A stretch of DNA of 52,865 bases, taken from positions 1-52,865 of the IMG/VR virus record IMGVR_UViG_3300043420_002024; one strand, written 5' to 3'. A program made the position numbers and the translations under genes. The notes beneath the pieces were generated by a model. The model had not been told where the DNA came from, did not search any database, and saw only the letters and a program-made list of their open reading frames with translations. Positions 27,539-49,400 of the stretch are shown in pieces (position 1 is the first letter of the stretch; the number at the start of each line of letters is the position of its first letter). Origin of the DNA: a virus. Lineage: Duplodnaviria; Caudoviricetes.

Positions 27539-28116
27539 ATATTATTGCTTTTGCTGGAAGAAAACAATCAGGAAAAACAAGCGCTGCGCTGGCTGTTGTT
27601 CAAGCGTTTGAAGTAAGAAATATCACAGGCATAGTTAAGGTATATAACTTTGCAGACCCATTAAAAAACTTGTGTATTGATATTTTTGGACTAGAACACC
27701 GACAGTGTTATGGTAATGACCAAGATAAAAACGAGCTTGTTGATTGTTATTGGGACGATAAGCAACTGTCATCTAGAGAAGTTTTACAAATTGTTGGCAC
27801 AGATATGTTTCGTAAAATGCAGCATCATGTATGGTCTTCGGCAACAATTAGAAAAATCAAACAAGACAATCCGGACCTAGCACTAATTGCTGATTGTAGA
27901 TTTCCGAATGAAGTTGAAGCAGTTAAAAAAGCTGGTGGTATTGTTATCAAACTGAACAGAAATGTACATAGTTCTGATCACGCAAGCGAAACTGCACTAG
28001 ATAAAGAAAATTATGATTATTCAAATTTTGATTTGGTTGTAGAAAACCAGGATATGGACATATATGAAAAAAACTATTATATAGGCACATTTCTTAGAAA
28101 CATAGGTGTTGTATGA
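27535..28116 (+). CDS. Deoxynucleoside monophosphate kinase (phage type)
   Basis: GRKQSGKT, FADPLK, REVLQIVGTD, DCRFPNE, HASE. Confidence 0.88.
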   Translation: MNIIAFAGRKQSGKTSAALAVVQAFEVRNITGIVKVYNFADPLKNLCIDIFGLEHRQCYGNDQDKNELVDCYWDDKQLSSREVLQIVGTDMFRKMQHHVWSSATIRKIKQDNPDLALIADCRFPNEVEAVKKAGGIVIKLNRNVHSSDHASETALDKENYDYSNFDLVVENQDMDIYEKNYYIGTFLRNIGVV

Positions 28117-29135
28117 TTATTACTTATTTAAGAAGTTCTAGTTATGGTACGCATTCTATGTGTGAACAGCAATATTTTATCGAATATAATTTAGGAATTC
28201 GTAGCCCATCTAATCAAAAGGCCGATAAGGGAACCATAGTACATAAAGTAATGGAGATATTAGCAGATATATCTGTTGCTATTAAAAAAACACAAATGCA
28301 TATAGAGGATGATATATGTGGGGAAATTGACGTTTTGAATTATGACTTAAATTCAATTATAGAAACTGTCTATGAGTATTATACAAGTAGATTTAACCAT
28401 CATAACTGGAAACCTCTCGACTTAAAACATTGTAAACAATGGGTAGAAAAGGCTATAAATGTACAAAATGGTAATTTTGATCCCAGGAATCAAAATATTA
28501 TACAGCCGGAACAAAGATTTGATATAGAAATAAAAAAACCATGGGCTTATTATCATTATAGCGAAGATTTAAAAGGTTATTTAGCTATTAAAGGAACTAT
28601 AGATTTAATTGCAAAACCAAATGAAAACACGTTGGAAATCATCGATTATAAAACTGGTAGAAGGCTAGATTGGACAACAGGAGAAGAAAAAACTTTTGGT
28701 AAATTAGAAAAAGATCCACAATTAAGAATGTATCATTATGCCGCAAGTATACTTTATCCAGAAATAGACCATATTATTGTTAGTATATATTTTATTAATG
28801 ACGGTGGCATATTTAGTATGAATTATGATCGTAGCCATCTTCAAGAAACAGAAGATATGATCCGTAGAAAATTTGAAGAAATTAAAAGATGTAAAAGGCC
28901 TAGATTAAATAAGTCTTGGAAATGTACTAAACTATGTCATTTTGGCAAAAACTATTTTGACGAACCATTAATAGAATATAGAGATAATCAGGTTTGTGCT
29001 CATGGAACACCAATGACCATGTGTCAACAAATAGCCCATGCAATAGAAGTTGCTGGAATTAACTCAACTATTGACAAGTATACCGTTGAAGGCTATAATG
29101 TTGGAAAGTACAAAGCGCCTGGGAGCACGGAATGA
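28113..29135 (+). CDS. PD-(D/E)XK exonuclease, Cas4/RecB/AddB-like
   Basis: CEQQY, GTIVH, GTIDLI, IIDYKTG, QLRMY, C-terminal CTKLCHF...C. Confidence 0.85.
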   Translation: MIITYLRSSSYGTHSMCEQQYFIEYNLGIRSPSNQKADKGTIVHKVMEILADISVAIKKTQMHIEDDICGEIDVLNYDLNSIIETVYEYYTSRFNHHNWKPLDLKHCKQWVEKAINVQNGNFDPRNQNIIQPEQRFDIEIKKPWAYYHYSEDLKGYLAIKGTIDLIAKPNENTLEIIDYKTGRRLDWTTGEEKTFGKLEKDPQLRMYHYAASILYPEIDHIIVSIYFINDGGIFSMNYDRSHLQETEDMIRRKFEEIKRCKRPRLNKSWKCTKLCHFGKNYFDEPLIEYRDNQVCAHGTPMTMCQQIAHAIEVAGINSTIDKYTVEGYNVGKYKAPGSTE

Positions 29136-31024
29136 AAAACTATACGCCTCTACATTGTCATAGTCATTACTCACTTTTGGACGGACTCAGTAAACCTGAT
29201 CAAATAGCAAAAAGAATAAATGAAATAGGAGCATCTGCTTGTGCATTAACGGATCACGGGAATATTTCCGGTGCTGTACAATTCTATTCTTGCATGAAAA
29301 AGAACAAAATCAAACCTATATTAGGTTGTGAAATATACATGTGTCATGATGATCCAAAAAAGAAAACCAAAGAAAATTATGACCTATCACACTTTTTGGT
29401 TCTAGCAAAAAACCTGAAAGGCTGGAAAAAGCTAATACATTTAGTTTCTAGGTCAAATGACCCAGAATGTTTTTATAGAAAGCCTAGAATAGACATTAAG
29501 GGACTTCAAGAATATGCTGGTGACGACCTAATAGGAATATGTGGACATCTTGGATCTTATATTACAGACAAGATCTCTGTAAACAATCAAATTATAGATA
29601 ATTGGAAAACTGTTGGTTCGAATACAGTTGATGAGCTAAAATCTATCTTTGGAAAAGAAAACTTCTTTTTAGAGGCCCAGTTAATGGATTATATTAATAA
29701 TCCCATACAAATAGAAATTACTGAAAAATTAAGAAGTCTAGCTCAAATAACTAATACAAAAATTTTGTGTACACCAGATGCGCATTATTGCAGAAAAGAA
29801 GATGCTGTAGATCAAAGAATTCTACTATGTAATAATTTAAAAACTACATTTCCAGAAATACAAAGAAAATCTAATGCCGGTATCGATATAGGCATGAACT
29901 GTTTTTTTGAGTCGGATAATTTTCACATTCTTTCTCAAGAAGAAATTAATGATCTACATACAGAAGAAGAAATAGAAAATACTAATTTAGTTGAATCCAT
30001 GTGTGAAGATTATGATATTCTACACAAACCTATGCTACCTCCATTTGATTGCCCTAAAGGATTTACAGATGCAGAATACTTGAGACAATTATGTAGAGAC
30101 GGTTGGAAATCAAAAATAGAAAAAGATGTACCAAAAGATAAGCATGGAGAATATGTAGATCGAATTAAATATGAATTAGACGTCTTACAAGGCGCTGATT
30201 TATCCAGTTATTTTTTGATAGTACAAGATATTGTAAATCATATTAGAGACAATAATTGGCTTCCTGGACCCGGAAGAGGTTCTGCGGCAGGATGTCTTGT
30301 TTCATATCTAATCGGTATTACCAGCATAGATCCAATTAAATACAATTTGATTTTTGATAGATTTTATAACGCTGGAAGAAATACTAAAGATAGAATTTCT
30401 ATGCCAGATATTGATGTAGACGTACCGATTAATAAAAGAGAAGTAATCATCCAATATATCAAAGATAAATATGGTTCTGACAAAGTATCACAAATGATTA
30501 CTTATAATACTATGAAAGGCAGAGGTGCTTTAAAAGATGTATTAAGAGTATACGGAAACATTACATTTGAAGAGATGAACAAAATCACAAAAAATATTCC
30601 AGATGAGGCTAAAATTGCTGATGAGCTTCAAGAAATGAAAGAAGAATATGGAGAAGCTTCTATTATAAGATGGGCCTTAGAAAATAATCCTGACGAACTA
30701 AGAGAATGGTGTTCAATTAATAAAGACACAAATGAGATACAAGGTCCGCTTGCCAAAAGGTTTGAGCAAGCTATTAGATTAGAAGGAACCAAATCAAACC
30801 AATCAAAGCATGCCGCTGGAGTTGTTATCAGCCAACATAAACTAGAAGATACATGCCCGATGGTTTATGACAGCAAGAACAAACAATTAATTGCTGGTAT
30901 GGAAATGCAAGACTTAGAGTCTCTTGGTGTTATTAAGTTTGATATTCTTGGTATAGCTATGTTGGATAAAATTATGTCTATTCAAGATTTATTAAAATCT
31001 AATTCGTTTAACCTTTCAAATTAA
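29132..31024 (+). CDS. dnaE: DNA polymerase III alpha, N-terminal half (PHP + palm/thumb)
   Basis: HCHSHYSLLDG, TDHG, PDAHY, GPGRGSAAG, MPDIDVD, KHAAGVVI, KFDILG; ends ~23 aa after KFDILG. Confidence 0.93.
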   Translation: MKNYTPLHCHSHYSLLDGLSKPDQIAKRINEIGASACALTDHGNISGAVQFYSCMKKNKIKPILGCEIYMCHDDPKKKTKENYDLSHFLVLAKNLKGWKKLIHLVSRSNDPECFYRKPRIDIKGLQEYAGDDLIGICGHLGSYITDKISVNNQIIDNWKTVGSNTVDELKSIFGKENFFLEAQLMDYINNPIQIEITEKLRSLAQITNTKILCTPDAHYCRKEDAVDQRILLCNNLKTTFPEIQRKSNAGIDIGMNCFFESDNFHILSQEEINDLHTEEEIENTNLVESMCEDYDILHKPMLPPFDCPKGFTDAEYLRQLCRDGWKSKIEKDVPKDKHGEYVDRIKYELDVLQGADLSSYFLIVQDIVNHIRDNNWLPGPGRGSAAGCLVSYLIGITSIDPIKYNLIFDRFYNAGRNTKDRISMPDIDVDVPINKREVIIQYIKDKYGSDKVSQMITYNTMKGRGALKDVLRVYGNITFEEMNKITKNIPDEAKIADELQEMKEEYGEASIIRWALENNPDELREWCSINKDTNEIQGPLAKRFEQAIRLEGTKSNQSKHAAGVVISQHKLEDTCPMVYDSKNKQLIAGMEMQDLESLGVIKFDILGIAMLDKIMSIQDLLKSNSFNLSN

Positions 31025-31034
31025 GGAGATAATA

Positions 31035-31220
31035 ATGACAGTACAATTTAAAGACGTAGCAATAGGTTCTCAATTTATATTCAATGATGTTAAATACGAA
31101 AAAATTCCAGAGATTAGAGTAAGTTGCTGCACTGCTCATACAGCACAAGAAGTGGGTAATCCGAATTCTAAAATACAAATTCTGCCATTAGTGGAAGTAG
31201 AGGTGCTAGAAAATAAATGA
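31035..31220 (+). CDS. Small 61-aa hypothetical protein
   Basis: Strong AAGGAG RBS; beta-rich sequence with a CC pair; coupled to the exonuclease gene. Confidence 0.75.
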   Translation: MTVQFKDVAIGSQFIFNDVKYEKIPEIRVSCCTAHTAQEVGNPNSKIQILPLVEVEVLENK

Positions 31221-31903
31221 TCAATTATAACAAAATTTGTGTTTTTGACTTTGAAACAGATGGATCAAACCCATTCGTTTGTAGCCCAGTACAAATAGCT
31301 GCGGTTATGATAGATCCAATTAATCTTTCGGTTATTAAAGACTCAGAGCTAAATTTGCACTTTAAGCCAGAAGTTTTAGAAAATGATCCAGATTATGAAT
31401 ACAAAGGAGATATCTTAGATTTCCATGCTAAAGTTAAGGGAACGGACAAAGAATCTGTATTAGCAGAATGGAAGACATATCCGTCACAAAAAACTTCTTG
31501 GAATCTTTTTACAGATTATATGGATAAGTATCATTCTAGATCTTCCAAGAAAAGCCAGTTTAGCGCCCCTATAGCAGCTGGCTATAATATTCATAGGTTT
31601 GATTTGCCAATTATTGAGAGGTTAAGCACTAAATATGGAAATCTTAATAAAGAAAAAAGAAGCAATGTCTTCTATATGAGAGACGTTCTGGATATTATGC
31701 ATATAGTATTTCTATGGTTTGAAAATAATACAGACTTGAAGAGTTATTCTCTGGATTCTTTAAGAGATTATTTTGGAATATCCAAAGAAGGTGCTCATGA
31801 CGCATTAAAGGATGTTAGAGATTGTGCAGAAATTCTTATTAGGTTTCTAAAACTACACAGGAGAATGTCAACAAAAATACAATTTAAGGATTCTTTTAAA
31901 TGA
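31217..31903 (+). CDS. DEDDh 3'-5' exonuclease (DNA Pol III epsilon/DnaQ-like)
   Basis: FDFETDG (ExoI), GYNIHRFD (ExoII), HDALKD (ExoIII). Confidence 0.9.
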   Translation: MINYNKICVFDFETDGSNPFVCSPVQIAAVMIDPINLSVIKDSELNLHFKPEVLENDPDYEYKGDILDFHAKVKGTDKESVLAEWKTYPSQKTSWNLFTDYMDKYHSRSSKKSQFSAPIAAGYNIHRFDLPIIERLSTKYGNLNKEKRSNVFYMRDVLDIMHIVFLWFENNTDLKSYSLDSLRDYFGISKEGAHDALKDVRDCAEILIRFLKLHRRMSTKIQFKDSFK

Positions 31904-32340
31904 GTAAAAAACTTGTAATAAAAACAATAGTCCGAACTATTGTCTATCAAATACTATTGGTTTGGGCTGGGTTTTCTATAGGTTTCATGGTAAATCCAGA
32001 ATATTGGGGTAATCGTGCTCCGCTTGTTGAGAGATCTATCAAACATATCTTTTGGCCTATTGAATATAACGAAAATGTAGAACAGTTTTTATGTAGTATC
32101 GGTAGGTCTAGAATATATTTTGAACTAGAAGCATCTGCGCCGGGATTCTATGGATTAAAAATACTCGAAGAAAAAATGGAAAGCGACGAATACTATATAG
32201 CAAAATATAAATACACAAATATAAATGGCGATGTGGTTATAGTAGATGACTATAGGACAAAGATCAACTGGAAACCCTGGGAATTAGACTATCCTTTACC
32301 TGAAGAAAAAACAGCAGACAGCGCAAAGGATTTTGACTAA
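31900..32340 (+). CDS. Hypothetical membrane-anchored protein
   Basis: 146 aa; N-terminal TM segment IVYQILLVWAGFSIGFMV. Confidence 0.7.
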   Translation: MSKKLVIKTIVRTIVYQILLVWAGFSIGFMVNPEYWGNRAPLVERSIKHIFWPIEYNENVEQFLCSIGRSRIYFELEASAPGFYGLKILEEKMESDEYYIAKYKYTNINGDVVIVDDYRTKINWKPWELDYPLPEEKTADSAKDFD

Positions 32341-32915
32341 TGACAATAACTAATAAGGATATTGTACAGTATATTGTGGAAGACAATATGCAAGATTTGA
32401 TTATTTCCAACGCTAAAAAAGCAGAAATTGGTGGTTTTTCCCAAATTAGAAATAATATGGAAAGAAACAAACTACTTTCTGAAGATCAATTAGTGGGACA
32501 AATAAGCACCTATTGTGCATCAATGGTCTTGACTGGAAAAGCAGAAGGGTATATTAAGGCAAGAGAAAAAGCTAATATGAATCCCTATTCTGGAGATGAA
32601 GGAATCGATATTCAAGGACTAGATAATATAGATATCAAAGGTAGTTTGATGAGATATTCAAAAAATCCTTTAGAATACAGGCTGTTGGTTAGGCCAAAAG
32701 AAAGACATAAAAATTGGATTTATGTCTTAGCGTTAGTGCCAAAAGAAAGACCTTACAAATCTTATATTGTAGGATGGGCCGAAGATAAAGATTTGCCAAA
32801 ACAAACATATAACGGAGCAATTAAATCTTTACATGGTGCTTATGTTATAGAAGCAAAAAACTTAAAGCCTATCAAAAAATTAATTGAAAACACAACATTG
32901 ATCTTTAATAATTAG
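32340..32915 (+). CDS. Hypothetical protein, possibly of the restriction-endonuclease (PD-(D/E)XK) fold
   Basis: GQISTY...GDEGIDI...NIDIKG...YVLALV...IVGW resembles phage PD-(D/E)XK-like proteins. Confidence 0.55.
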   Translation: MTITNKDIVQYIVEDNMQDLIISNAKKAEIGGFSQIRNNMERNKLLSEDQLVGQISTYCASMVLTGKAEGYIKAREKANMNPYSGDEGIDIQGLDNIDIKGSLMRYSKNPLEYRLLVRPKERHKNWIYVLALVPKERPYKSYIVGWAEDKDLPKQTYNGAIKSLHGAYVIEAKNLKPIKKLIENTTLIFNN

Positions 32916-32925
32916 AAATATAAGC

Positions 32926-34530
32926 ATGAAATATTTTACATATAATTGTGGCTGTAAATTTCCTATTGTAGACTCAAATTCTATTATATTTAATTCAAAA
33001 ATAGAAGACATAAATTTGGATTGTCAAAGAACTTGGGAATTAATAAGTGAAGGAAACACAAAAGGATGTTTCCAGTTAGAGTCTAGACTCGGAAGAACAA
33101 TGGCAAAAAAACTAAAGCCAGAGAACATAGAGCAGCTTTCTGCTTTAATCAGTATTGTTAGACCGGGTTGTCTAGAAGCTATTAGAGATGGAAAAAGCGT
33201 TAGTAACCATTACATCGATAAAAAGAATGGAAATGAATCCATTGATTATTTTCATCCTTCTCTAGAACCGATTTTAAATGCAAGCTATGGAGAAATGATC
33301 TATCAAGAACAAGCAATGGAGATCACAAAAGTTATTGCTGGTTTCAATTTACAAGAAGCCGATATGTTAAGAAAAGCTATTGGTAAAAAGCAGCCAGAAG
33401 AAATGGCAAAAGTCAAGCAAAAATTTCTTGAAGGAGCCACATCTAAAAATATAGTAAACCAAACCCAGGCAGAAGAGATATTCAGTTGGATTGAAAAATC
33501 ACAAAGATATTCTTTTAATAAAAGTCACAGTATTTCTTATGCTGTTAATGCCTATATGTCGGCATATGCTAAGGCTCATTTTCCAAAAATATTTTTTGCT
33601 TCTTATTTAAGGTATGCAAAAGATAAAATTGATCCACAACAAGAGATCAAAGAATTAATTCAAAACGCTAACGAAATGGACATAGAAGTAACTCCTCCAG
33701 ACATAAGAAATCTAAATGAGTTTTTTTCATTACAAGAAGGAAAAATTTATTTTGGTTTGACAGACATTAAGGGTGTTGGTAAATCTGTTTTTGATAAGTT
33801 AAAAAGCGTTGTTACAGAAAATAATCTTGACTTAAATACAATGACCTGGGAAGAAATATTATTTAAGGTTTTACTGAATATTAATTCTACAGCAGCTAAA
33901 GCTTTAATTAGTTGCGGAGCTTTAAGATTTGTAGACAAAACCAGAAATGCTATGTTGTATGAATTAAATATAGCTAGCAAGCTAACTAGTAGAGAGATCA
34001 AAATCATAGAAGAATATATAAAGTCAAATAATCTTAAAAACTTGATAGAGATTCTTAGCAGCTCAAAAGTTAATAAAAAAAGAATGCAAACTATTCAAGA
34101 GCTTAAATACTCACTAATAAAGCCTCCTTTTAGTCTTGCGGATAGTCCTGAATGGATTTCTGACAACGAAGACACTCTATTAGGATATTCTATTACATGT
34201 TCTAAGATAGATATGTACGATATTAGTATGACAAATTGTACATGTAAAGAATTTAAAAACGGATTCAATAGAGAAAATATAATGCTTGCTGGAGAAATAG
34301 ATAGGATTCATGTAGTAAAAACTAAAAACGGAAATTCCAAAGGAATGGATATGGCTTTTATATCTGTTAGCGATAGTACAGGAAATCTTGATTCTATTAT
34401 ATGTTTTGCAGAACAATACAGGCAGTTTAAGAATGTTTTGTTTGATGGGAACGTTATTATCATAAAAGGTAAAAAATCTAATCAGAAAGATAGTCTAATA
34501 GTAGAAAAAATATTTATACCTGCGTCTTGA
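32926..34530 (+). CDS. dnaE: DNA polymerase III alpha, C-terminal half (fingers, HhH, OB)
   Basis: GNTKGCFQLES, RPG, IYQEQAM, ADMLRKAIGKK, YSFNKSH, IYFGLTDIKGVG, OB fold MAFISVSDSTG. Confidence 0.93.
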   Translation: MKYFTYNCGCKFPIVDSNSIIFNSKIEDINLDCQRTWELISEGNTKGCFQLESRLGRTMAKKLKPENIEQLSALISIVRPGCLEAIRDGKSVSNHYIDKKNGNESIDYFHPSLEPILNASYGEMIYQEQAMEITKVIAGFNLQEADMLRKAIGKKQPEEMAKVKQKFLEGATSKNIVNQTQAEEIFSWIEKSQRYSFNKSHSISYAVNAYMSAYAKAHFPKIFFASYLRYAKDKIDPQQEIKELIQNANEMDIEVTPPDIRNLNEFFSLQEGKIYFGLTDIKGVGKSVFDKLKSVVTENNLDLNTMTWEEILFKVLLNINSTAAKALISCGALRFVDKTRNAMLYELNIASKLTSREIKIIEEYIKSNNLKNLIEILSSSKVNKKRMQTIQELKYSLIKPPFSLADSPEWISDNEDTLLGYSITCSKIDMYDISMTNCTCKEFKNGFNRENIMLAGEIDRIHVVKTKNGNSKGMDMAFISVSDSTGNLDSIICFAEQYRQFKNVLFDGNVIIIKGKKSNQKDSLIVEKIFIPAS

Positions 34531-34554
34531 CAATCAGTACAATTTTGATACAAT
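34527..34554 (+). promoter_or_regulatory. Sigma70-like promoter TTGACA-N16-TACAAT
   Basis: The -35 overlaps the dnaE-C stop codon; lies upstream of ssb (AGGAG RBS). Confidence 0.75.
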
Positions 34555-34609
34555 AGTAGTAGTTCGTGGTGCCCTCTTTTTAATTTTTTAGTAGGAGTTT
34601 GATAAAATA

Positions 34610-35002
34610 ATGAACATTATTATCCTTAAAGGCAATTTGGCTCGTGATCCTGAACTCAGATGCATTAGTTCTAATGGTAGAGAAACATATGTGGTAAATT
34701 TTACAGTTGCTGTTTCTAGAGAATACTATAAGAACAATGGTGACAAAGACAAGATTACAACTTTTGTTCCTTGCGAAGCATGGGATAGCGGAGCAGAGGT
34801 AATTGGGGAATCCTTCAAGAAGGGAGACCCTGTAATGATCGAAGGTTCTCTACGGAATGATAGCTGGGAAAAAGACGGCGTTAAACATAATACTATGAAA
34901 GTAAGGGTTAATAATTTTTCAAAGATCACAAAGCTTTCTAGAAAAAAAACAGCCGCTGTATCTACGGAAAGTAGTGAACTAGAAGACACAGTAGCGTTTT
35001 AA
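34610..35002 (+). CDS. ssb: Single-stranded DNA-binding protein
   Basis: MN..ILKGNLARDPELR, NFTVAVSR, TTFVPCEAW, KKGD..MIEGSL; acidic tail ELEDTVAF. Confidence 0.93.
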   Translation: MNIIILKGNLARDPELRCISSNGRETYVVNFTVAVSREYYKNNGDKDKITTFVPCEAWDSGAEVIGESFKKGDPVMIEGSLRNDSWEKDGVKHNTMKVRVNNFSKITKLSRKKTAAVSTESSELEDTVAF

Positions 35003-35021
35003 TATCAGTATTATGCTTATT

Positions 35022-35060
35022 TCCCCCCAGAGATCATATCTCTGTGGGGGATTAAGTTTT
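35022..35060 (+). terminator. Strong hairpin after ssb, probable intrinsic terminator or RNA-stabilising stem
   Basis: TCCCCCCAGAGAT-CAT-ATCTCTGTGGGGGA stem (one bulge) followed by TTAAGTTTT; the U-tract is weak. Confidence 0.65.
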
Positions 35061-35094
35061 GGCACAAATAAAAAGACATAAATATTAGGACAAT

Positions 35095-36765
35095 ATGAAA
35101 AAATTACGAATATTGATGTGCTCAGAAGCCAGTTATTTAAATTCTGGATTTTCTGGATATGCTAAACAAATTCTCCGTCGTTTACACGCAACTAATAAGT
35201 ATATAATTGGAGAATTTGCTTCTTATGCTAGGATGCATGATCCTAGAGATCAAGATGTGCCGTGGATTTTTTATCCAAACGCTCCCAGCAATAACGACGA
35301 CGCTTCTGCTAAAGAATATAATGCTAATCCAGAAAATCAATTTGGTAGATGGAGATTTGAAAGAGTAGTAATAGATTTTAAGCCTGATATCATTTTCGAT
35401 ATTAGAGACTATTGGATGAACTCTTATCAGCAAAACTCTCCTCTAAGACCTTACTACCATTGGGTTGTAATGCCAACAGTAGATTCTGAGCCACAACAAG
35501 AAGACTGGATAGACACATACGTTTCTGCTGATGGCATATTAACTTATTCTGATTTTGGTCGAGACGTATTGCTAAAGCAAAGCAATAACAAAATCAAATA
35601 TTTTGATACTGCTTCTCCAGGTGTGGACCTATTAAACTTTAGACCTATGATAGAACAAAAAAGTCAAATCAGAGAACTTTTGGGAATGCCAAAAGACGCT
35701 TTTGTTATAGGTTCTGTAATGAGAAATCAAAAAAGAAAACTCATACCGGATCTATTTGATGCTATTAGAATATTAAAAGAAAAAAACCCAGAACTATATA
35801 ATAAAACATTTTTGTATCTACATACTAGTTATCCAGATGCTGGATGGGATATTCCACAGTTATTAAAAGATTATGACATAACGAATAAAGTATTTTTTAC
35901 ATATTATTGTCCTAAATGTGGCAACATTAGAGCATTATTGTTTAGTCATTCAAAAATAATGTGTAACAAATGCGGGTCTGACACTCTCGCTTTTCCAAAT
36001 GTTAATAACGGTATATCCACACAAAACTTAGCATTGATCTACAACTCTTTTGATTTATATGTTCAATACGCAATTTGCGAAGGGTTTGGAATGCCTCAAG
36101 TAGAAGCAACTGCTTGTGGAATACCTATAGCAACGGTAAACTATAGTGCGATGCAGGATATTGTACAAAATCTGAAAGCCTATCCTGTCAAAATACAAAA
36201 ATATTTTAAAGAGCTTGAAACAAAAGCAATCCGAGTATACCCGGACAATGATAATTTAGTAGAAATTATGGAAAAATTCTACAAACTTCCAGATTTACTC
36301 AAGCTTCAAAAAAGAACAGAAACTAGATCGTTAACAGAAAAACACTATAATTGGGACAATATAGCTAAGAAGTGGGAAAAATATTTTGATAACGCAGTGC
36401 TAACAGGTCTGCAAGGAAAATGGGACCATTCTTTACCAACCTATACTCCGATACCAGAAGAAATAATTGAATCAAAAATAGATAACTATACATTTGTATA
36501 TGGTACAATTAAAAAATTTCTACCGAATCATCCAATTATAAGTTCTATTATTCCTTTAAATATGATAAGAGATCTAGATTATGGTTTTGTTCAACATGGA
36601 ATGTCAATAGTTCCATATACAAAGAAAAATGTAGTTACTATCTTAAATTCGATTATAAATAACCATAATTTAGCACAAAACGCTCTTAAAAACGCAGATA
36701 AATTAGTTTATCCAGACTTTATACAGTATTCTCGTTTGAAACAGCAAACAAAGGTCAATTCATGA
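35095..36765 (+). CDS. GT-B glycosyltransferase (GT4-like) with an inserted zinc ribbon
   Basis: IL...EAS...SGF, FKPDI, PGVD, VMRNQKRK, EGFGMPQVEA.ACGIP, YNWD; insert CPKCG...CNKCG. Confidence 0.85.
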   Translation: MKKLRILMCSEASYLNSGFSGYAKQILRRLHATNKYIIGEFASYARMHDPRDQDVPWIFYPNAPSNNDDASAKEYNANPENQFGRWRFERVVIDFKPDIIFDIRDYWMNSYQQNSPLRPYYHWVVMPTVDSEPQQEDWIDTYVSADGILTYSDFGRDVLLKQSNNKIKYFDTASPGVDLLNFRPMIEQKSQIRELLGMPKDAFVIGSVMRNQKRKLIPDLFDAIRILKEKNPELYNKTFLYLHTSYPDAGWDIPQLLKDYDITNKVFFTYYCPKCGNIRALLFSHSKIMCNKCGSDTLAFPNVNNGISTQNLALIYNSFDLYVQYAICEGFGMPQVEATACGIPIATVNYSAMQDIVQNLKAYPVKIQKYFKELETKAIRVYPDNDNLVEIMEKFYKLPDLLKLQKRTETRSLTEKHYNWDNIAKKWEKYFDNAVLTGLQGKWDHSLPTYTPIPEEIIESKIDNYTFVYGTIKKFLPNHPIISSIIPLNMIRDLDYGFVQHGMSIVPYTKKNVVTILNSIINNHNLAQNALKNADKLVYPDFIQYSRLKQQTKVNS

Positions 36766-43445: not shown

Positions 43446-46400
43446 CTAACCTTTTAAATATGTTTTTCCATACAGATCAATTTTACAACAATATTCATCT
43501 GGAGAACATGATCTTACTTTATCATAACATACTGGAGCTGATGAGCAAGTGTCTTCTGGATTATTTCCAATTTTTTCTACGACGTTAGTAAATTTTCCAG
43601 AAAACATTCCGTTTCGACAATTATTTCTAGGCAAACCAGCGCTATAGTATGTTCTACAAACAGAACTGCTAATATTGTCTGGTCCTAATTCATCTATAAT
43701 TTTATCTTCAAGAGATACCGGATGCTTATATTGATATGTCATATAAGCAACTAATACGCTTATACTAGCTTCTTGTGTTATAAGTTCATAATCAAAACCA
43801 CACTGATCATCCCTTAGTGTCGCTTTCAGCTTAAAAGCAGTAGCAGGCCAGGAAAAAGAACCAAAATTTAAAGAGCAAGAACCTGGGATAACACCTTCAA
43901 TTAAATCTTTGGCAACATAACCATAATTATTTGTACAATAATATTGACTAGCGTATCGTTCTTCTATTTGCTGTTTCCATAGGTCTATATAAGCTTCTGC
44001 TGATTGACCATTAGTTGTCCATGATGGAAAATTAACGACAAACCCACCATTTGCTACTATCTTCGTTTCACATAAGCCCCCTAGCTCACCATTGTCAGAA
44101 CCAAGTAAAGGATGGCCAACAGCGATGTGCCACAATGTTTCAGCTGCTCCAAAACCAACATAAGGAGGCCATGTACCACACTCTCTTTCTCCGTAGAAAC
44201 CAAGATTTCCCAACCCCATATCATTGCCTTCTGTTACATTAAGATAATCACTACCTTTTATAATTAAGCAGTCAAAACCGGCCGTCATATTCGAATTTAG
44301 CGAACCTCCAGTCAAAAGAGTGCCTAAAATACAAATATTATTATCTATTTGGAATTGCCATTCAGGATTGCTTACCACCTCTACATTACCTAAAGAAGTA
44401 GAACACTGTTGACAATTTGTGGTTATTGTTTCGTTTATACCGTATGTATTATTCGGTAATTCAACCTTAATATAAGGACATCCTCTAGTAGTAATTTTAT
44501 CGCAACCATATCCGTTATACTTAACTACATCTTCACTACCTTCTCCATCAGCTGAATTATTTTGTATTGTGAGTATCTTTCTAATTCCTAGATTTAATTG
44601 CACTTCATTATTGTCATAAGAAAATGTAGCTATCACTCTATTACAACCAATAGTGTCTGTGTTATCAATTGGATAATTATTAGTGGTTTCTACTATTTCA
44701 TATACTGTTCCTGGGCTTACACAAGAGGAATACCAATAAGATTCTACGCAAGTAAAATATTCAACCCAACCACCATACGCTAAACATGTTGTTGGAGGAT
44801 CTGCATCGTTGCCTCGCAAACCATAACAACAATTTCCAGGATAATAATCACCCTCATTTAAACCAAGATCAAAACAATCATCATATATACCACCAGGATT
44901 GCTATCTACGCCACCTTCATAATCTCCTTCCACGCTTCCCATAGGACGGTTGCAACATTTAACATAATATGACCAAGCCTCTAAGTCTACTCCTCCCTCT
45001 CGTTTGTTTTCTACACAAGTATATTCCGGAATACTAGTTGTGTAACTAGCGACATTGTACAAGCTATTTGTAACAAGCCCCTTCATAATCATATCATAAT
45101 GACAATTTTTGATTCTATAACTCAATTTTTTAACTAATATAGTTTTTGGTTCCGAATCTCCATCTGTTGTGTTCTCTCCGCAACAATTAGACTCAACAGA
45201 ACATGGATATGCTTGATATCTTCCGCATTCTAACGGAGCACTGCTGTCCCCGCCACCCCTAAAAATAATCGCAGATGCTGCGTATCTTGTTAAAAAGCTA
45301 TCCAAATTACTAGCCAAAGCAGAATCAGCAGTTTCTATGCTAAATGCTGAACAAGGAACATTATTAGATACAGATATTGGCACAGCATAAATAGAATTGT
45401 CCAACGTTATAACGGCATCAAATCCTCTCCATGAAGCTTGACAATCAGAAGCATAATCTGATGTAAATGTGACTACCTCTCCGCTAGGCATAGCTTCTAC
45501 AATACTACAATTTTCTCTGTAAATATCGTCGGCGTCTGCCAAAGGATGCTTATAGCCACAGTGAGTAGAAATACCAAATCCCATTGGGGTTCTACATGTA
45601 TCAACAACTCTTTCTGTTGTATTCTCGTCAACAACAGAAGTAACGTCGCTACCAGCTTCTCTAATATAGAGACTTTTGCTTTCGGCAAATTTTTCTTTAA
45701 TTAATCCTTTAACGCCCATCTCAGGACACTCTGCTATAATAGCTTCCGCTGTTTCTTTAATGTTAATAGTATAAACGCGTTTATTAAAAGTAATTTTAAA
45801 AGAATCGCCTATATTACCAGGACCTATAATATTAAAAGCTCCATCCACTTTTATATTTTTTAAGTTAGCCAATTTATCATAATCATAAGGAATATAATCA
45901 TAAACACTAGCAATATTATTTTTTGTGTTATTTAGTAATTCGTTTAAAATATTTGAATATGAAATATTATTAGAATTATGTTTGGATATGTTATTTAGGT
46001 TAAGCTTTTGTTTAGACCCATGAATCGCTCTAAACATAATTTCATTTGCCCATATATCAATATCTTTAGGGGCTATAATGTTTTCAGAAATTTCATATTG
46101 ATACAAATCATCCCATACAGATAAGCTTCTCTGTAATCGAGGATAGCTAGATCCGTTAATACAATCAGAACTGCCATTTAAAGAGTGTTCAGGAAACATA
46201 ACGCTGTAATTTTCAAATTCAGATCTAACTATATAAGGTATGGCGCCACTTAAGCTCAAAGGACAATATAATCCAGCATCAATTGATATTGCATATTCTA
46301 AATTTTCAGTATCTAAATCTGTTAATGACTTATATTTGTAAAGATACGTTCCAAATATAGATGAGATTTCGGTGTTTCCAATAGGATTCATAGAACATTG

Positions 46401-49400
46401 ATTCTGAACCGGCGTTTCGCCACACTTCCTTTCTTCGTCAATATCACAATATATAGGATATGACACATAAGGTTCTCCTCTCGCTATTATTCTTTGGAAT
46501 CTTGACCAATCAAAAGGAGAGTTTGTCATATTTGTTAATGGCATAGTAACATTTGCTGTAACTAAATTTGTACACACAGAACTATCGAAATCTTCATCCG
46601 TTAAAGAAGACTTGGAACCAATACCTAATAAAACATTATATGGTTCTGTTAAGACTAATGACCTGGAATAAAAATCTCCAACAATAGAAACTGGTTTTAG
46701 TCTAAAATTGCTATCTAAATTAACAAAAAAATCAAAGTTATCAGAACTTGGTGTTTTGGGATTACTATATGACGGCCTATAAATGCCAGAAATACACATT
46801 GTGCCAATCTTTGGAGCATAATTCCTATCTGGATCTAAAGAAAAATTTGTTTCTGACAATAAATCGCTTGGGTTTTCTGAGTTATCATAGATATTTAAAT
46901 CTATAACCGGAGTGCTAGTCTTGTATAAATTATATTTACCTAAAGTTTTTTGTGCTTTCTTATCCAAGCTAAAAGGTTGATGCACATAATAAGATAATAA
47001 GGGAGTATCAAAAGATATGACCCTATTTTGCTCTTTGAAATATAACCGATATAAAAATTCATTAAAACATAGTCCGTTGTCTTCTTTAGAATCTGGAACT
47101 TGATAACTATAACTAAAATTATTAGCCATAATGTAGTTTAAAATATTGTCATATAAGAAAGGACCATAAGCTTGATTTAAAGCTAGTTGATAAACCGAAT
47201 TATTAAGTGTATCTGCTGTATTATTTTTATATACTAGATCAGCCCATTTATTACTATAGCTTTCCCTATTTTGTTGCATAAAAACTAATTCAAATAGGTT
47301 TAAGTTGATCAAATCGTTATTATTAATATTTGCGGCTGAAGTAGTAGGAAATATGGTAAAATTATGGTTTTTACTTTCTTCGTTATAAATATTGATATAG
47401 CCATTATCTGGAGGAGAGGAGTTTAATTCTAAAACAGTATAGATATTGTTGTATTTTTGTGGAATCAAATTATTTTCTGAAAAACTAGCATAAAGATCTC
47501 TGTTTACCTCTATACTTTTCGATTTAACTATATGTGTTTTTACAAAATAGGGCTTTCTGTTTGACACATGAGACTCGTAGTCTTTACTGCCCATACTGTC
47601 TATATTGCCATCAACAGAATATATTTGAACATCATCAGTCAATGAAAGCTTTGTGTCCGGAGCTGTAACGCCACTATATGTTATTGATTGATACAAAATT
47701 TTATCTTCATGAAAAATGTTAGGTTTTATACCGCCCTCTTCTTCAACAAACATATTGTCTGCATTAGATAAATTAGGCAACATAAAATACGCTCTAGATC
47801 CTTCTATGTATATTTTATTTGGGTCGTTTTTATCTTTTACATATCTATGGGTTGAATAAGGGTATGGTAGTTCTCCTCTATAAGCTGGTAAAACAGCCCA
47901 GTCTAAAACATTGCGAAAGTATTTAAGTTCCAAAGGAACTTTTGGTACGGCAGGAATAAGCGGTCCTATAGCGGGTTCTGTTGGTTGATAAGTCTCTCTA
48001 AAAAAAGTAGGCCAAGAATGATATTGTTTATTTTCTTGAGTGTTATAGTAACCAAAGGTTCTATCATCCTCATATTCATACCACCGATCATTTAATTTTA
48101 GATAAAGCCGTATTTTATTGTTATAGTCCAAAGAATTAACATACCTATTTAATTTGTTTATCTTGTCTAAAGTCAAAGAGCCTTTTAGGGTTAGGCCTTT
48201 TTCTGTTTGAGGATACTTTGTAGCATTGTTAAAAACTTTATACCCATAATCAAAATTAAACAAGCCATTATATTTATTGATCGATAAAGTGCTATCATAG
48301 CTTTTGTCTCCAATCAAACCTATATTTGGTTCAAAAAAAGTTTCTTGCAATTTACCTAAAGACTGAATAGGGGGAATTTTAAAAGCTAATACATTTTTAT
48401 TAGGCAGTCTTTTTATTGTTAATGTAATTGTTGAAGGACCTGTATTTTGGGAGAAATTAGCATTTGACGAGTTTGTTGAGCAGCTGAACATAGCGGGTGT
48501 ATATAGATACTGGTTGGGGTCTTCAAAAATACTAGATAATAATTGGTTGTATATATTTACTTCTACAGTATTAGAAAAGACATCAACAATAGTTTGTTCG
48601 TTAGGAAATATTTCTTTGTTATTAATAACTATTTTGTTTTGATTTCTAATATTGCCAGCAAAACCATAAGTGTCACTAAAAGAAACCCATATTGTAGCTC
48701 CATTAGGGTCTAATTTTGGAATTTTAAGCACCCATTTAGTAGCGACATAATTAGGCAAAGTCACAGTAAAAGTTTCAGCGCATCCATTCAACTCTAAAAC
48801 ATTGATTTCTTTGTTAGTTCTAGGCAAATTTGAACCTGGTTCTGGATGATTTGGTATTCTAAAATCACCCATTAAGTCTGTTACTTTTATGTCGCTGTAA
48901 CCTCCATAAGATTTTAAAGGAATAGATTTGGTAGATAAAAACGGAGTAAAAAGTTTTGGTGTTTCATAAACAACAGCACCATTCTCGTTTGTGTCGCATC
49001 TGTAACTAAAATTTTCTACTTTATTCAAAGACCAACAGCTACAAGCTTGATTCAGAGGTAGAGTTTTACAATTTAATCTGTCTGACTTTCTAAGAAATTC
49101 AGAAGATATCCCATAAACTTTTATTCCCATATCATAAGTTTTGAAAGATATTTCTGGATTATATTTTTGTTTAGAAGGCTTCCAGTCTGTAGCAAAAGCT
49201 ACTGTTCCAGTACCGGGATATCTAGTTAATAAGGTGCTGTCATAATAACAGCCTCCCTCTTCATGAAAAGCTACTAAATCTATTGATGGATTAGAAGCAA
49301 TAGCGTCATAATATCTAGTTAACCTAAATAGTCTATCTGGATTTAGAAAAAAAACATTTTCATTTCCTTCCGCATCTGTTTCTAAATCTAAATCAGAAAA

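Follow-up and report, generated by a model that had tools for sequence, protein, structure and literature searches.

The DNA analysed here, called the window throughout, is the whole 52,865 bp of the IMG/VR virus record IMGVR_UViG_3300043420_002024 (Duplodnaviria; Caudoviricetes), with an estimated completeness of 37% and ~31% G+C. Its subject is the dnaE locus, where the alpha subunit of DNA polymerase III (Pol III) is encoded in two separate open reading frames (ORFs) on the same strand, named DnaE-N and DnaE-C (Table 1). Pol III alpha is the textbook single-chain bacterial replicase; at this locus the DnaE domains are instead divided between two ORFs that start and stop independently, and the arrangement is conserved. 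The stop of DnaE-N and the start of DnaE-C are 1901 nt apart, and the gap is occupied by a 61-aa ORF (orf61), a DEDDh 3'-5' exonuclease gene and ORFs of 146 and 191 aa (orf146 and orf191). DnaE-N matches the Pfam families PHP (residues 7-183, E=6e-38) and DNA_pol3_alpha (315-607, E=2.6e-75), and DnaE-C matches DNA_pol3_finger (24-174, E=6e-46) and HHH_6 (253-342, E=2.9e-10). A further match of DnaE-C to an OB domain is weak (455-526, E=3e-4, under the Pfam cut-off), and the structural model has a beta-barrel at 452-530.

The two halves match adjoining positions in every full-length model or relative tried, namely phrog_405 (DnaE-N to 42-617, DnaE-C to 622-1077), TIGR00594 (1-575 and 579-1021), Escherichia coli alpha (5fku_A; 6-565 and 587-914) and a contiguous gut-phage DnaE (8-577 and 578-1075), and therefore no sequence has been lost. 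By these alignments the break is at the palm/fingers boundary, right after the first helix that Pfam assigns to the finger model, which stays on DnaE-N; in E. coli alpha the palm is taken to extend to ~560 and the fingers to begin at 561. The catalytic residues D426 and D428 (PDIDVD) and D604 (KFD) are all on DnaE-N and are invariant in 37 aligned sequences, while the finger motifs FQLES, RPG and FNKSH are all on DnaE-C and equally invariant, and neither half has a whole active site. Mean column identity is 79% for DnaE-N and 73% for DnaE-C, indicating strong constraint on both. The tau-binding tail is absent from DnaE-C, which matches NF004226 at 583-1052 of 1146 positions and stops there. 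A candidate clamp-binding motif in DnaE-C, RNxMLFEY, was rejected, as it aligns to a plain helix of E. coli alpha (884-914) upstream of the clamp motif of that protein. In the PHP domain, the metal-site residues D17, H42, E67, H87, H139, D216 and H218 are invariant among the N-halves and the N-terminal HxH is present in 33/37. The four N-halves without it are those of loci L035, L040, L041 and L043, and N-halves of a short class (~520-560 aa, for example L124:3669-5294) match only positions 6-98 of the 164-position PHP model; the domain is therefore degenerating in some lineages.

Table 1. Features of the split dnaE locus and its surroundings, with the contigs that bridge its gene junctions (window positions unless a locus is named)
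Feature	Position	Strand	Description
PD-(D/E)XK nuclease gene	28113..29135	+	Pfam PDDEXK_1, E=3.4e-20
Promoter-like site	29071..29099	+	TTGACA-17-TATAAT, 12/12 match, 33 nt ahead of DnaE-N start
DnaE-N	29132..31024	+	630 aa; PHP, palm and thumb; C-terminal end ...KFDILGIAMLDKIMSIQDLLKSNSFNLSN, then stop
orf61	31035..31220	+	61 aa; small SH3-like beta-barrel (model); preceded by TAAGGAGAT (ribosome-binding site)
DEDDh 3'-5' exonuclease	31217..31903	+	228 aa; RNase_T, E=3.4e-9; phrog_192 'DNA polymerase exonuclease subunit', E=2.7e-20
orf146	31900..32340	+	146 aa; hydrophobic N-terminal segment
orf191	32340..32915	+	191 aa; weak match to phrog_18407; widespread viral family
DnaE-C	32926..34530	+	534 aa; begins MKYFTYNCGCKF...; fingers, HhH, OB
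SSB gene	34610..35002	+	Pfam SSB, E=2.2e-24
Junction DnaE-N/orf61/exonuclease	30601-31617		bridged by X4 record 12
Junction exonuclease/orf146			bridged by X3 record 4 and X4 record 13
Junction orf146/orf191			bridged by X7 record 21, X8 record 28 and X4 record 14
Junction orf191/DnaE-C	32727-33289		bridged by X3 record 6
73-87-aa gene in the orf61 slot of other loci	L089:5056-5307, L092:5059-5301, L103:5077-5298, L112:5083-5304 and others

The split recurs throughout the relatives of the window, which were gathered in three sets of loci. Set 1, obtained with DnaE-N as query, holds the best 80 of 312 IMG/VR relatives (69-78% identity); set 2, obtained with an alignment of C-halves that lack the CGC motif described below, holds the best 80 of at least 570 relatives plus L086; and set 3, obtained with the relative P0216, holds 23 loci. 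The sets overlap, with 14 contigs of set 2 also in set 1 and one contig of set 3 also in set 2. The order PD-(D/E)XK nuclease, DnaE-N, exonuclease is found in 80/80 loci of set 1, with the nuclease immediately 5' of DnaE-N and the same breakpoint, and the ends of the N-half ORFs agree to within a few residues in 81/81. Of the 69 set 1 loci that extend to the C-half, 67 have 829-895 nt between the N stop and the C start; this gap widens to 3485 nt in L074 and to 4501 nt in L060. Set 2 has an N-half at most 6 kb upstream on the same strand in 78/81 loci and fused halves in 0/81; in the three exceptions (L090, L097 and L100) the exonuclease adjoins the C-half and the N-half lies ~6 kb further upstream, as was confirmed in two of the three. 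Set 3 shows the order N-half, exonuclease, C-half in 20/23 loci; L193 ends too early to judge and the other two are the fractured loci L171 and L172 considered below. The exonuclease is located between the halves in all split loci examined (69/69 in set 1, 78/78 in set 2 and 20/20 in set 3), although in L179 and L180 its match is only a 107-aa ORF. The spacing between the halves ranges from ~630 nt to ~6.7 kb and can include unrelated metabolic genes, so that the halves behave like independent genes. In L090:100-5218 (also L097 and L100), the ~6 kb that separate DnaE-N from the exonuclease and DnaE-C carry aldehyde dehydrogenase, amidinotransferase-like, class III aminotransferase, UDP-glucose dehydrogenase-like and saccharopine dehydrogenase-like genes.

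At the protein level, 7956 of 8000 candidates scored are N-half homologues at E<=1e-10, the best 120 all being 571-633 aa long, and 141 of the 150 best C-half representatives (clustered at 50% identity; 38-58% identity) begin at the split point, with 5/150 crossing the junction and 4/150 truncated or partial. The window is a metagenome-derived fragment and only ~37% complete, which leaves room for the suspicion of artefact or decay, be it an assembly error, a pseudogene created by a frameshift or an insertion that lately inactivated the gene in a single genome. This explanation is rated as having practically no chance of being right, since the identical architecture is found in hundreds of independent contigs from many samples, no gene lacks a start or stop of its own, sequence conservation is strong and each gene junction of the window's arrangement is spanned by near-identical contigs from four other studies, these sources being low-depth contigs (Table 1). 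The same layout in hundreds of independent contigs likewise excludes chance. Two apparent joints within the exonuclease gene in X4 (skips of 105 and 87 nt; side lengths of 32 and 21 letters) were discounted, as they probably reflect variation among strains or relatives.

A different objection is that the halves are joined after all, through an unrecognised mechanism such as a non-canonical, very short split intein, trans- or cis-splicing of the RNA or translational bypass, to give a single-chain enzyme. DnaE-C starts MKYFTYN|CGC, where the Asn-Cys pair superficially resembles an intein C-terminal junction, and inteins are common in this gene family: they occur at several sites of the C-half (around residues 80-90, 125, 150 and 200), large insertions bring 60/141 split C-half representatives to at least 600 aa, L026:10726-13092 and L063:10708-13107 (also L066) have an HNH-type intein at RPG|C...HN|C, and P0145, P0154, P0174, P0208 and L086 carry inteins as well. 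These same relatives serve as positive controls. The Pfam library that detects their inteins, and that sees the N-terminal half of a split intein (IntN) in L171 at E=2e-7, finds no Hint or intein family in either half of the window's DnaE at E<=0.01. N-half tails past the homologous region are variable, at most ~12 aa long and without a conserved junction Cys or Ser, and the C-half extension is 22 aa, as against 88-105 aa for IntN and 33-54 aa for the C-terminal half, IntC, in the extract of Dassa et al. 2009 (PMC2677866). Relatives of the shortest class have no extension on either side: the end of the N-half gene overlaps the beginning of the exonuclease gene, and the C-half starts at the first homologous residue, so the gap is the exonuclease ORF alone and has no room for a ribozyme or an intein. 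Rfam gives no intron family in window positions 28000-36000 at E<=1, and orf61, the exonuclease, orf146 and orf191 have no match to homing endonuclease families (HNH, GIY-YIG, LAGLIDADG or Vsr-like) in Pfam, PHROG or NCBIfam. Moreover, the gap consists of protein-coding genes under purifying selection and varies in length from 0.63 to 6.7 kb. Later joining of the halves is thus very improbable.

The split is confirmed as real, ancient, intein-free and without loss of sequence. An earlier note, made from the sequence of the window alone, had described the two ORFs with their lengths (630 and 534 aa) and a gap of ~1.9 kb, a break in the palm-fingers region that leaves the three catalytic Asp residues on the N half and costs no sequence, and the absence of a HINT domain after DnaE-N; all of this held, with profiles that abut, Asp residues that are invariant and an intein profile search, proposed in that note, that found none. 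The further checks it had proposed agree, namely the alignment to E. coli DnaE (N to residue 565, C from 587), the search of related phages, in which the breakpoint recurs in 80/80 set 1 loci and 141/150 C-half representatives, and the confirmation of the assembly by contigs from four other studies that cross every junction.

The exonuclease, which the earlier note had called DnaQ-like, is borne out as such by its RNase_T match (37.9 bits against a cut-off of 24) and by the residues D11, E13, D129, H194 and D199, invariant in 36 sequences. Its C-terminal tail, the part by which epsilon attaches to the PHP domain of the polymerase, is also conserved, with R209, F210, L213, R215 and F223 invariant in the same number of sequences. 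By its distribution it is the only universal occupant of the gap and belongs with the polymerase. The NCBIfam epsilon model NF004964 gives it 20.1 bits where the cut-off is 236, so that it is not an epsilon orthologue by that cut-off, and its best match in the PDB is the PolC exonuclease domain 2p1j (E=6e-6). An epsilon-like role is therefore an analogy, by which the exonuclease would probably be the proofreader of the split polymerase.

Four relatives of the window were judged 92-100% complete: two, of 231 and 200 kb, that have terminal repeats, and two more of 192 and 137 kb. In each of them a frame of 627-643 aa contains the only palm, and a different frame, of 537-551 aa, the only finger domain. 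Pfam finds neither PolA nor PolB in these four genomes, although a very divergent polymerase could escape such a search. With no other polymerase family there, a functional two-polypeptide replicase is the most reasonable reading, and the split enzyme is, as judged from gene content, probably the phage replicase. It is considered likely that a replicative C-family polymerase is made as two polypeptides that assemble non-covalently, probably together with the exonuclease. A DnaE-type Pol III alpha would be produced from one co-oriented gene block, in which DnaE-N carries the PHP domain, the palm with its catalytic Asp residues and the thumb, and DnaE-C the fingers, which bind dNTP and template, the HhH and the OB domain. 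The halves would associate without a covalent bond through the palm-fingers interface that is intramolecular in an ordinary DnaE, and the exonuclease encoded between them would act as a proofreader analogous to epsilon. In the clade of the window, the orf61 barrel may join them as an additional subunit. Because the genes overlap or are closely spaced, the subunits would be made in matched amounts, and the PHP domain could provide a second nuclease activity.

Alternatively, the two products might act separately, DnaE-N as a PHP nuclease or phosphatase and DnaE-C as a DNA- or clamp-binding modulator of the host replisome, with host Pol III copying the phage DNA. Such an arrangement would suit the conserved PHP ligands and the lack of any beta-clamp C-terminal domain (PF02768) in the four near-complete relatives, on account of which host factors are probably used. 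It is nonetheless quite improbable, because the catalytic Asp residues of the N-half and the dNTP-binding finger motifs of the C-half are invariant over deep divergence, which is unexpected unless a joint active site is in use, and because both genes are always together on one strand in genomes that have their own helicase, primase, SSB, recombinase and ribonucleotide reductase.

Several points weigh against the proposal of a non-covalently assembled replicase, beginning with the fact that binding of the halves and their joint polymerisation are inferred, and with the undetected polymerase allowed for above. The exonuclease is by sequence only a distant member of the DEDDh superfamily, and the PHP domain could be the proofreader in its place because most of its metal ligands are kept. 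For the part assigned to orf61, the CGC motif of DnaE-C and orf61 do not always occur together, as L152 has the motif without the gene and L159 and L075 have the gene without the motif. Furthermore, P0208, P0209 and P0216 are full-length contiguous DnaE proteins with ~45% identity to the C-half, and L171:4312-9687 (and L172) have a dnaE with an unbroken palm/fingers junction, immediately preceded by the exonuclease gene. These contiguous relatives, together with L171 and L172, mean that the split is not obligatory in this polymerase lineage. Two more proteins, P0152 and P0226, are truncated at the N-terminus yet contiguous through the junction, and the linker of the contiguous forms, as read in P0209 and P0216, is short and without CGC. 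The earlier note had proposed a non-covalent heterodimeric C-family replicase, possibly with the exonuclease and the 61-aa protein as subunits; the split, the lack of an intein, the linked exonuclease and the lack of another polymerase stand, the association of the halves is still a proposal and the 61-aa protein is limited to one clade.

The history of the contiguous forms was followed in a FastTree phylogeny (LG+gamma) of 143 rows and 516 match columns of a hidden Markov model (HMM), rooted on one gut-phage DnaE, from which ten rows exceeding 35% gaps had been left out (P0183, P0227, P0233, P0240, P0245, P0259, P0263, P0272, P0291 and phage PK-1). In it the five fused proteins fall into two small clades several nodes deep inside the split forms; local supports on the path to the first include 0.96, 0.92 and 0.965, and those on the path to the second include 0.96, 0.94, 0.93 and 0.966. 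With thin rooting and sampling, it is more parsimonious to assume a single ancient split and two later re-fusions. No locus for P0209 was found among the viral contigs, and metagenome contigs gave only a 31% match; none was found for P0260, and the P0216 query gave only split or fractured relatives. In L171 and L172, dnaE is fractured past the finger domain into an 894-aa ORF ending in Hint, a free-standing NUMOD3/DUF559 (Vsr-like) endonuclease and a 373-aa ORF. This fracture corresponds to about residue 200 of the window's C-half (FNKSHS), which is also the commonest insertion site among the C-half representatives and the place, at residues ~196-200, where the NCBIfam models for the parts of cyanobacterial DnaE, PRK09532 and PRK07373, meet. 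Within one gene family, the breaks therefore include an intein-free split, numerous inteins and a fracture by a split intein, and there are apparent re-fusions as well. If the pieces of the split enzyme assemble, the family would be a good system for studying how essential genes are broken and healed.

To our knowledge, the only well-known natural two-gene Pol III alpha is the cyanobacterial one, which is rejoined by a split intein; a two-gene PolB exists in archaea. In the cyanobacterial split-intein dnaE of the Synechocystis/Nostoc type, the halves carry IntN and IntC, are encoded at distant loci and are trans-spliced to one chain (PMC2677866). The phage system is alike in making Pol III alpha from two genes and differs in being intein-free, in having the genes as neighbours and in breaking ~200 residues further upstream. 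Dassa et al. 2009 (PMC2677866) described fractured genes with split-intein halves and a free-standing homing endonuclease, among them three metagenomic DnaE loci. Here too an essential phage-type replication gene from aquatic metagenomes is broken within an operon with a gene in between, but there is no intein and the intervening gene is an exonuclease, a probable functional partner; L171 and L172 do have the layout of such a fractured dnaE, at another break site and with the exonuclease upstream. Intein-less broken genes are known from T4-like phages, namely the gp43 PolB (Karam, Petrov) and NrdA of phage Aeh1 (Edgell), as reported in PMC2677866. They share with the window adjacent genes for one enzyme, the lack of an intein, a distance of at most a few kb and a presumed assembly, whereas gp43 is a family B polymerase, few phages are involved and the characterised inserts are homing endonucleases, not a proofreader. 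Unlike these cases, the phage DnaE split defines a very large and deeply diverged clade.

A parallel comes from the group 2.2 jumbo phages (Iyer et al. 2021, PMC7824862), in which the C-family catalytic module of a minimal Pol III alpha is divided between two free-standing proteins that are predicted to reconstitute it. Their version is reduced to a minimal core that lacks PHP and other domains and is encoded by distant genes beside a family B replicase (PMC7824862), whereas the present split divides a full-domain DnaE whose genes stay linked around the exonuclease, and no other polymerase was found. A split polymerase has also been described in a chimallivirus (PMC13648687), and Timinskas et al. 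(PMC3919608), in the part of the text available, treat only intein-split and frameshifted bacterial DnaE. Like the E. coli Pol III core (alpha-epsilon-theta), the locus combines genes for a polymerase of the DnaE type, a DEDDh exonuclease and a third, small protein, but alpha is a single chain in E. coli and here the exonuclease is not an epsilon orthologue, orf61 is predicted to be a barrel and there is no tau-binding domain. No description of a full-domain DnaE split at palm/fingers with an exonuclease inside was found in full-text literature searches, subscription journals being outside the coverage. Split polymerases are thus known as a kind, and this form is widespread and appears to be uncharacterised, with its mechanism inferred.

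Deposited phage genomes gave 0 matches in a megablast search with the dnaE region, and in tblastn with the N-half the best identity was 35%, to a contiguous DnaE, without a member of the split family being seen in that collection, from which records close to the window may be missing. Among deposited genomes, the Bacillus phages vB_BceM_WH1 (L082) and Jayan (L083) have dnaE annotated in three and two pieces, respectively; the breaks are at other positions, with spacers of 270-725 nt that may be introns or small insertions. A very large and abundant group of uncultured marine and freshwater phages (137-231 kb; at least 570 IMG/VR loci) keeps a full-domain DnaE in two pieces over deep divergence. 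If the pieces assemble, the palm-fingers connection is dispensable for a C-family replicase, and the halves would be a natural split-polymerase pair of use in studies of mechanism and in engineering. In that case, a correction is also due in gene callers and family models built on ~1100 aa, as genes of this kind are now named 'DNA polymerase III alpha' as fragments.

Of the other gap genes, orf61 was found by tblastn in 76/80 set 1 loci and by HMM in 37/78 set 2 loci, with C31, C32 and V55 invariant in 56 sequences and ratios of non-synonymous to synonymous substitution (dN/dS) of 0.02-0.23 (median 0.11) over 14 same-length pairs that are not all independent; by these signs it is a real gene, limited to one large clade. 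Its model is a five-stranded barrel (mean confidence score, pLDDT, 94.6) for which a fold search gave no PDB match at E<=0.001, the nearest being EF-P/eIF5A domain I and Tudor at E>=0.025. It is possibly an accessory subunit of the polymerase. The theta subunit (HolE) of Pol III is helical and binds epsilon, and the idea that orf61 is a theta-like subunit was rejected on the grounds of the barrel model. In a second class of split loci, the slot of orf61 holds an unrelated conserved gene of 73-87 aa (Table 1) with the motifs SICxINDFY...YQVHC and no Pfam family, and in a third class, with shorter N-halves (~520-560 aa and a reduced PHP domain), nothing lies in that slot.

The first 22 aa of DnaE-C are without counterpart in contiguous DnaE and contain an invariant Y-x-CGC-x-F. 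In the DnaE-C model (pLDDT 82), strands 3-5 and 11-16 flank the CGC with pLDDT 70-79, and the modelled hairpin could dock on a partner or bind a metal. Across 78 set 2 loci, 36 have both CGC and orf61, 34 have neither, seven have CGC only and one has orf61 only. This pattern tracks shared descent and has exceptions, and so is no evidence of co-evolution. A zinc bridge between the Cys pair of orf61 and the CGC of DnaE-C, which the co-occurrence had suggested, was rejected: the pattern is confounded by descent and contradicted by L152, which has no space for orf61, as well as by L159 and L075. A more ambitious version of the proposal would have the split, far from being a neutral scar, create an obligate multi-subunit core, in which the exonuclease docks at or holds the palm-fingers hinge, orf61 and the CGC hairpin join in the clade of the window, possibly through a shared zinc site, and assembly of the active site is coupled to the presence of the proofreader. 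This is speculative and rather unlikely; if true, it would be a control of fidelity or assembly unknown in cellular Pol III.

By their distribution, the remaining two gap genes are accessory insertions outside the polymerase. The four intact gap ORFs of the earlier note are present as it described, and of these only the exonuclease is universal: orf61 belongs to one clade, orf146 occurs in 5/80 set 1 relatives (L054, L059, L060, L074 and L076) and orf191 in 0/80. The label 'membrane protein' given to orf146 derives from its hydrophobic N-terminal stretch, and no Pfam, PHROG or NCBIfam family matches it. The 'PD-(D/E)XK-like' identity of orf191 is only a lead; in the Atlas it neighbours viral clusters of DUF5843/DUF3883-like type. 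In the sublineage of the window, the region from the exonuclease to DnaE-C is an insertion hotspot. In L060 (11168-14232) and L074 (11175-13204) this region holds an orf146 homologue, a prepilin-type/DUF1559-like gene and a ThyX-like gene, and in L060 alone a methyltransferase-like gene, the names methyltransferase-like, prepilin/DUF1559-like and ThyX-like having been read from the sequence, without a family search. The DUF1559-like type is typical of Planctomycetota and may hint at the host of the L060/L074 sublineage.

Pfam and PHROG scans of the window proteins place the dnaE region in a replication module, in which genes for a ribonucleotide reductase, a RecA/UvsX-like recombinase, a DnaB-like helicase, a primase and a dNMP kinase are followed by those for the PD-(D/E)XK nuclease, DnaE-N, orf61, the exonuclease, orf146, orf191, DnaE-C and SSB. 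Stop/start overlaps are seen at several gene borders of the dnaE block, including that between the PD-(D/E)XK nuclease and DnaE-N, and SSB is a downstream neighbour whose position is kept in the set 1 loci long enough to reach it. The promoter-like site ahead of DnaE-N is a weak hint of a real promoter, the scan total being at chance level (46 sites against 48.9 expected). No convincing + strand terminator was found by scanning between DnaE-N and DnaE-C, and the sole + strand terminator-like site in the span (30181-30194) is weak and internal to DnaE-N. The window has a mosaic make-up: the PD-(D/E)XK nuclease shares 78-85% identity with those of L053, L054, L059, L060, L072, L074 and L076 and only 59% with that of L001, and DnaE-N shows the opposite pattern, with 78% identity to L001 and ~70% to the L053-L076 group. 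Because the nuclease and DnaE-N have different nearest relatives, these identities suggest recombination within the replication module. Genes on the + strand are densely packed until 42.9 kb of the window, and the opposite strand carries one ORF of 2755 aa at 43446-51713 (-).

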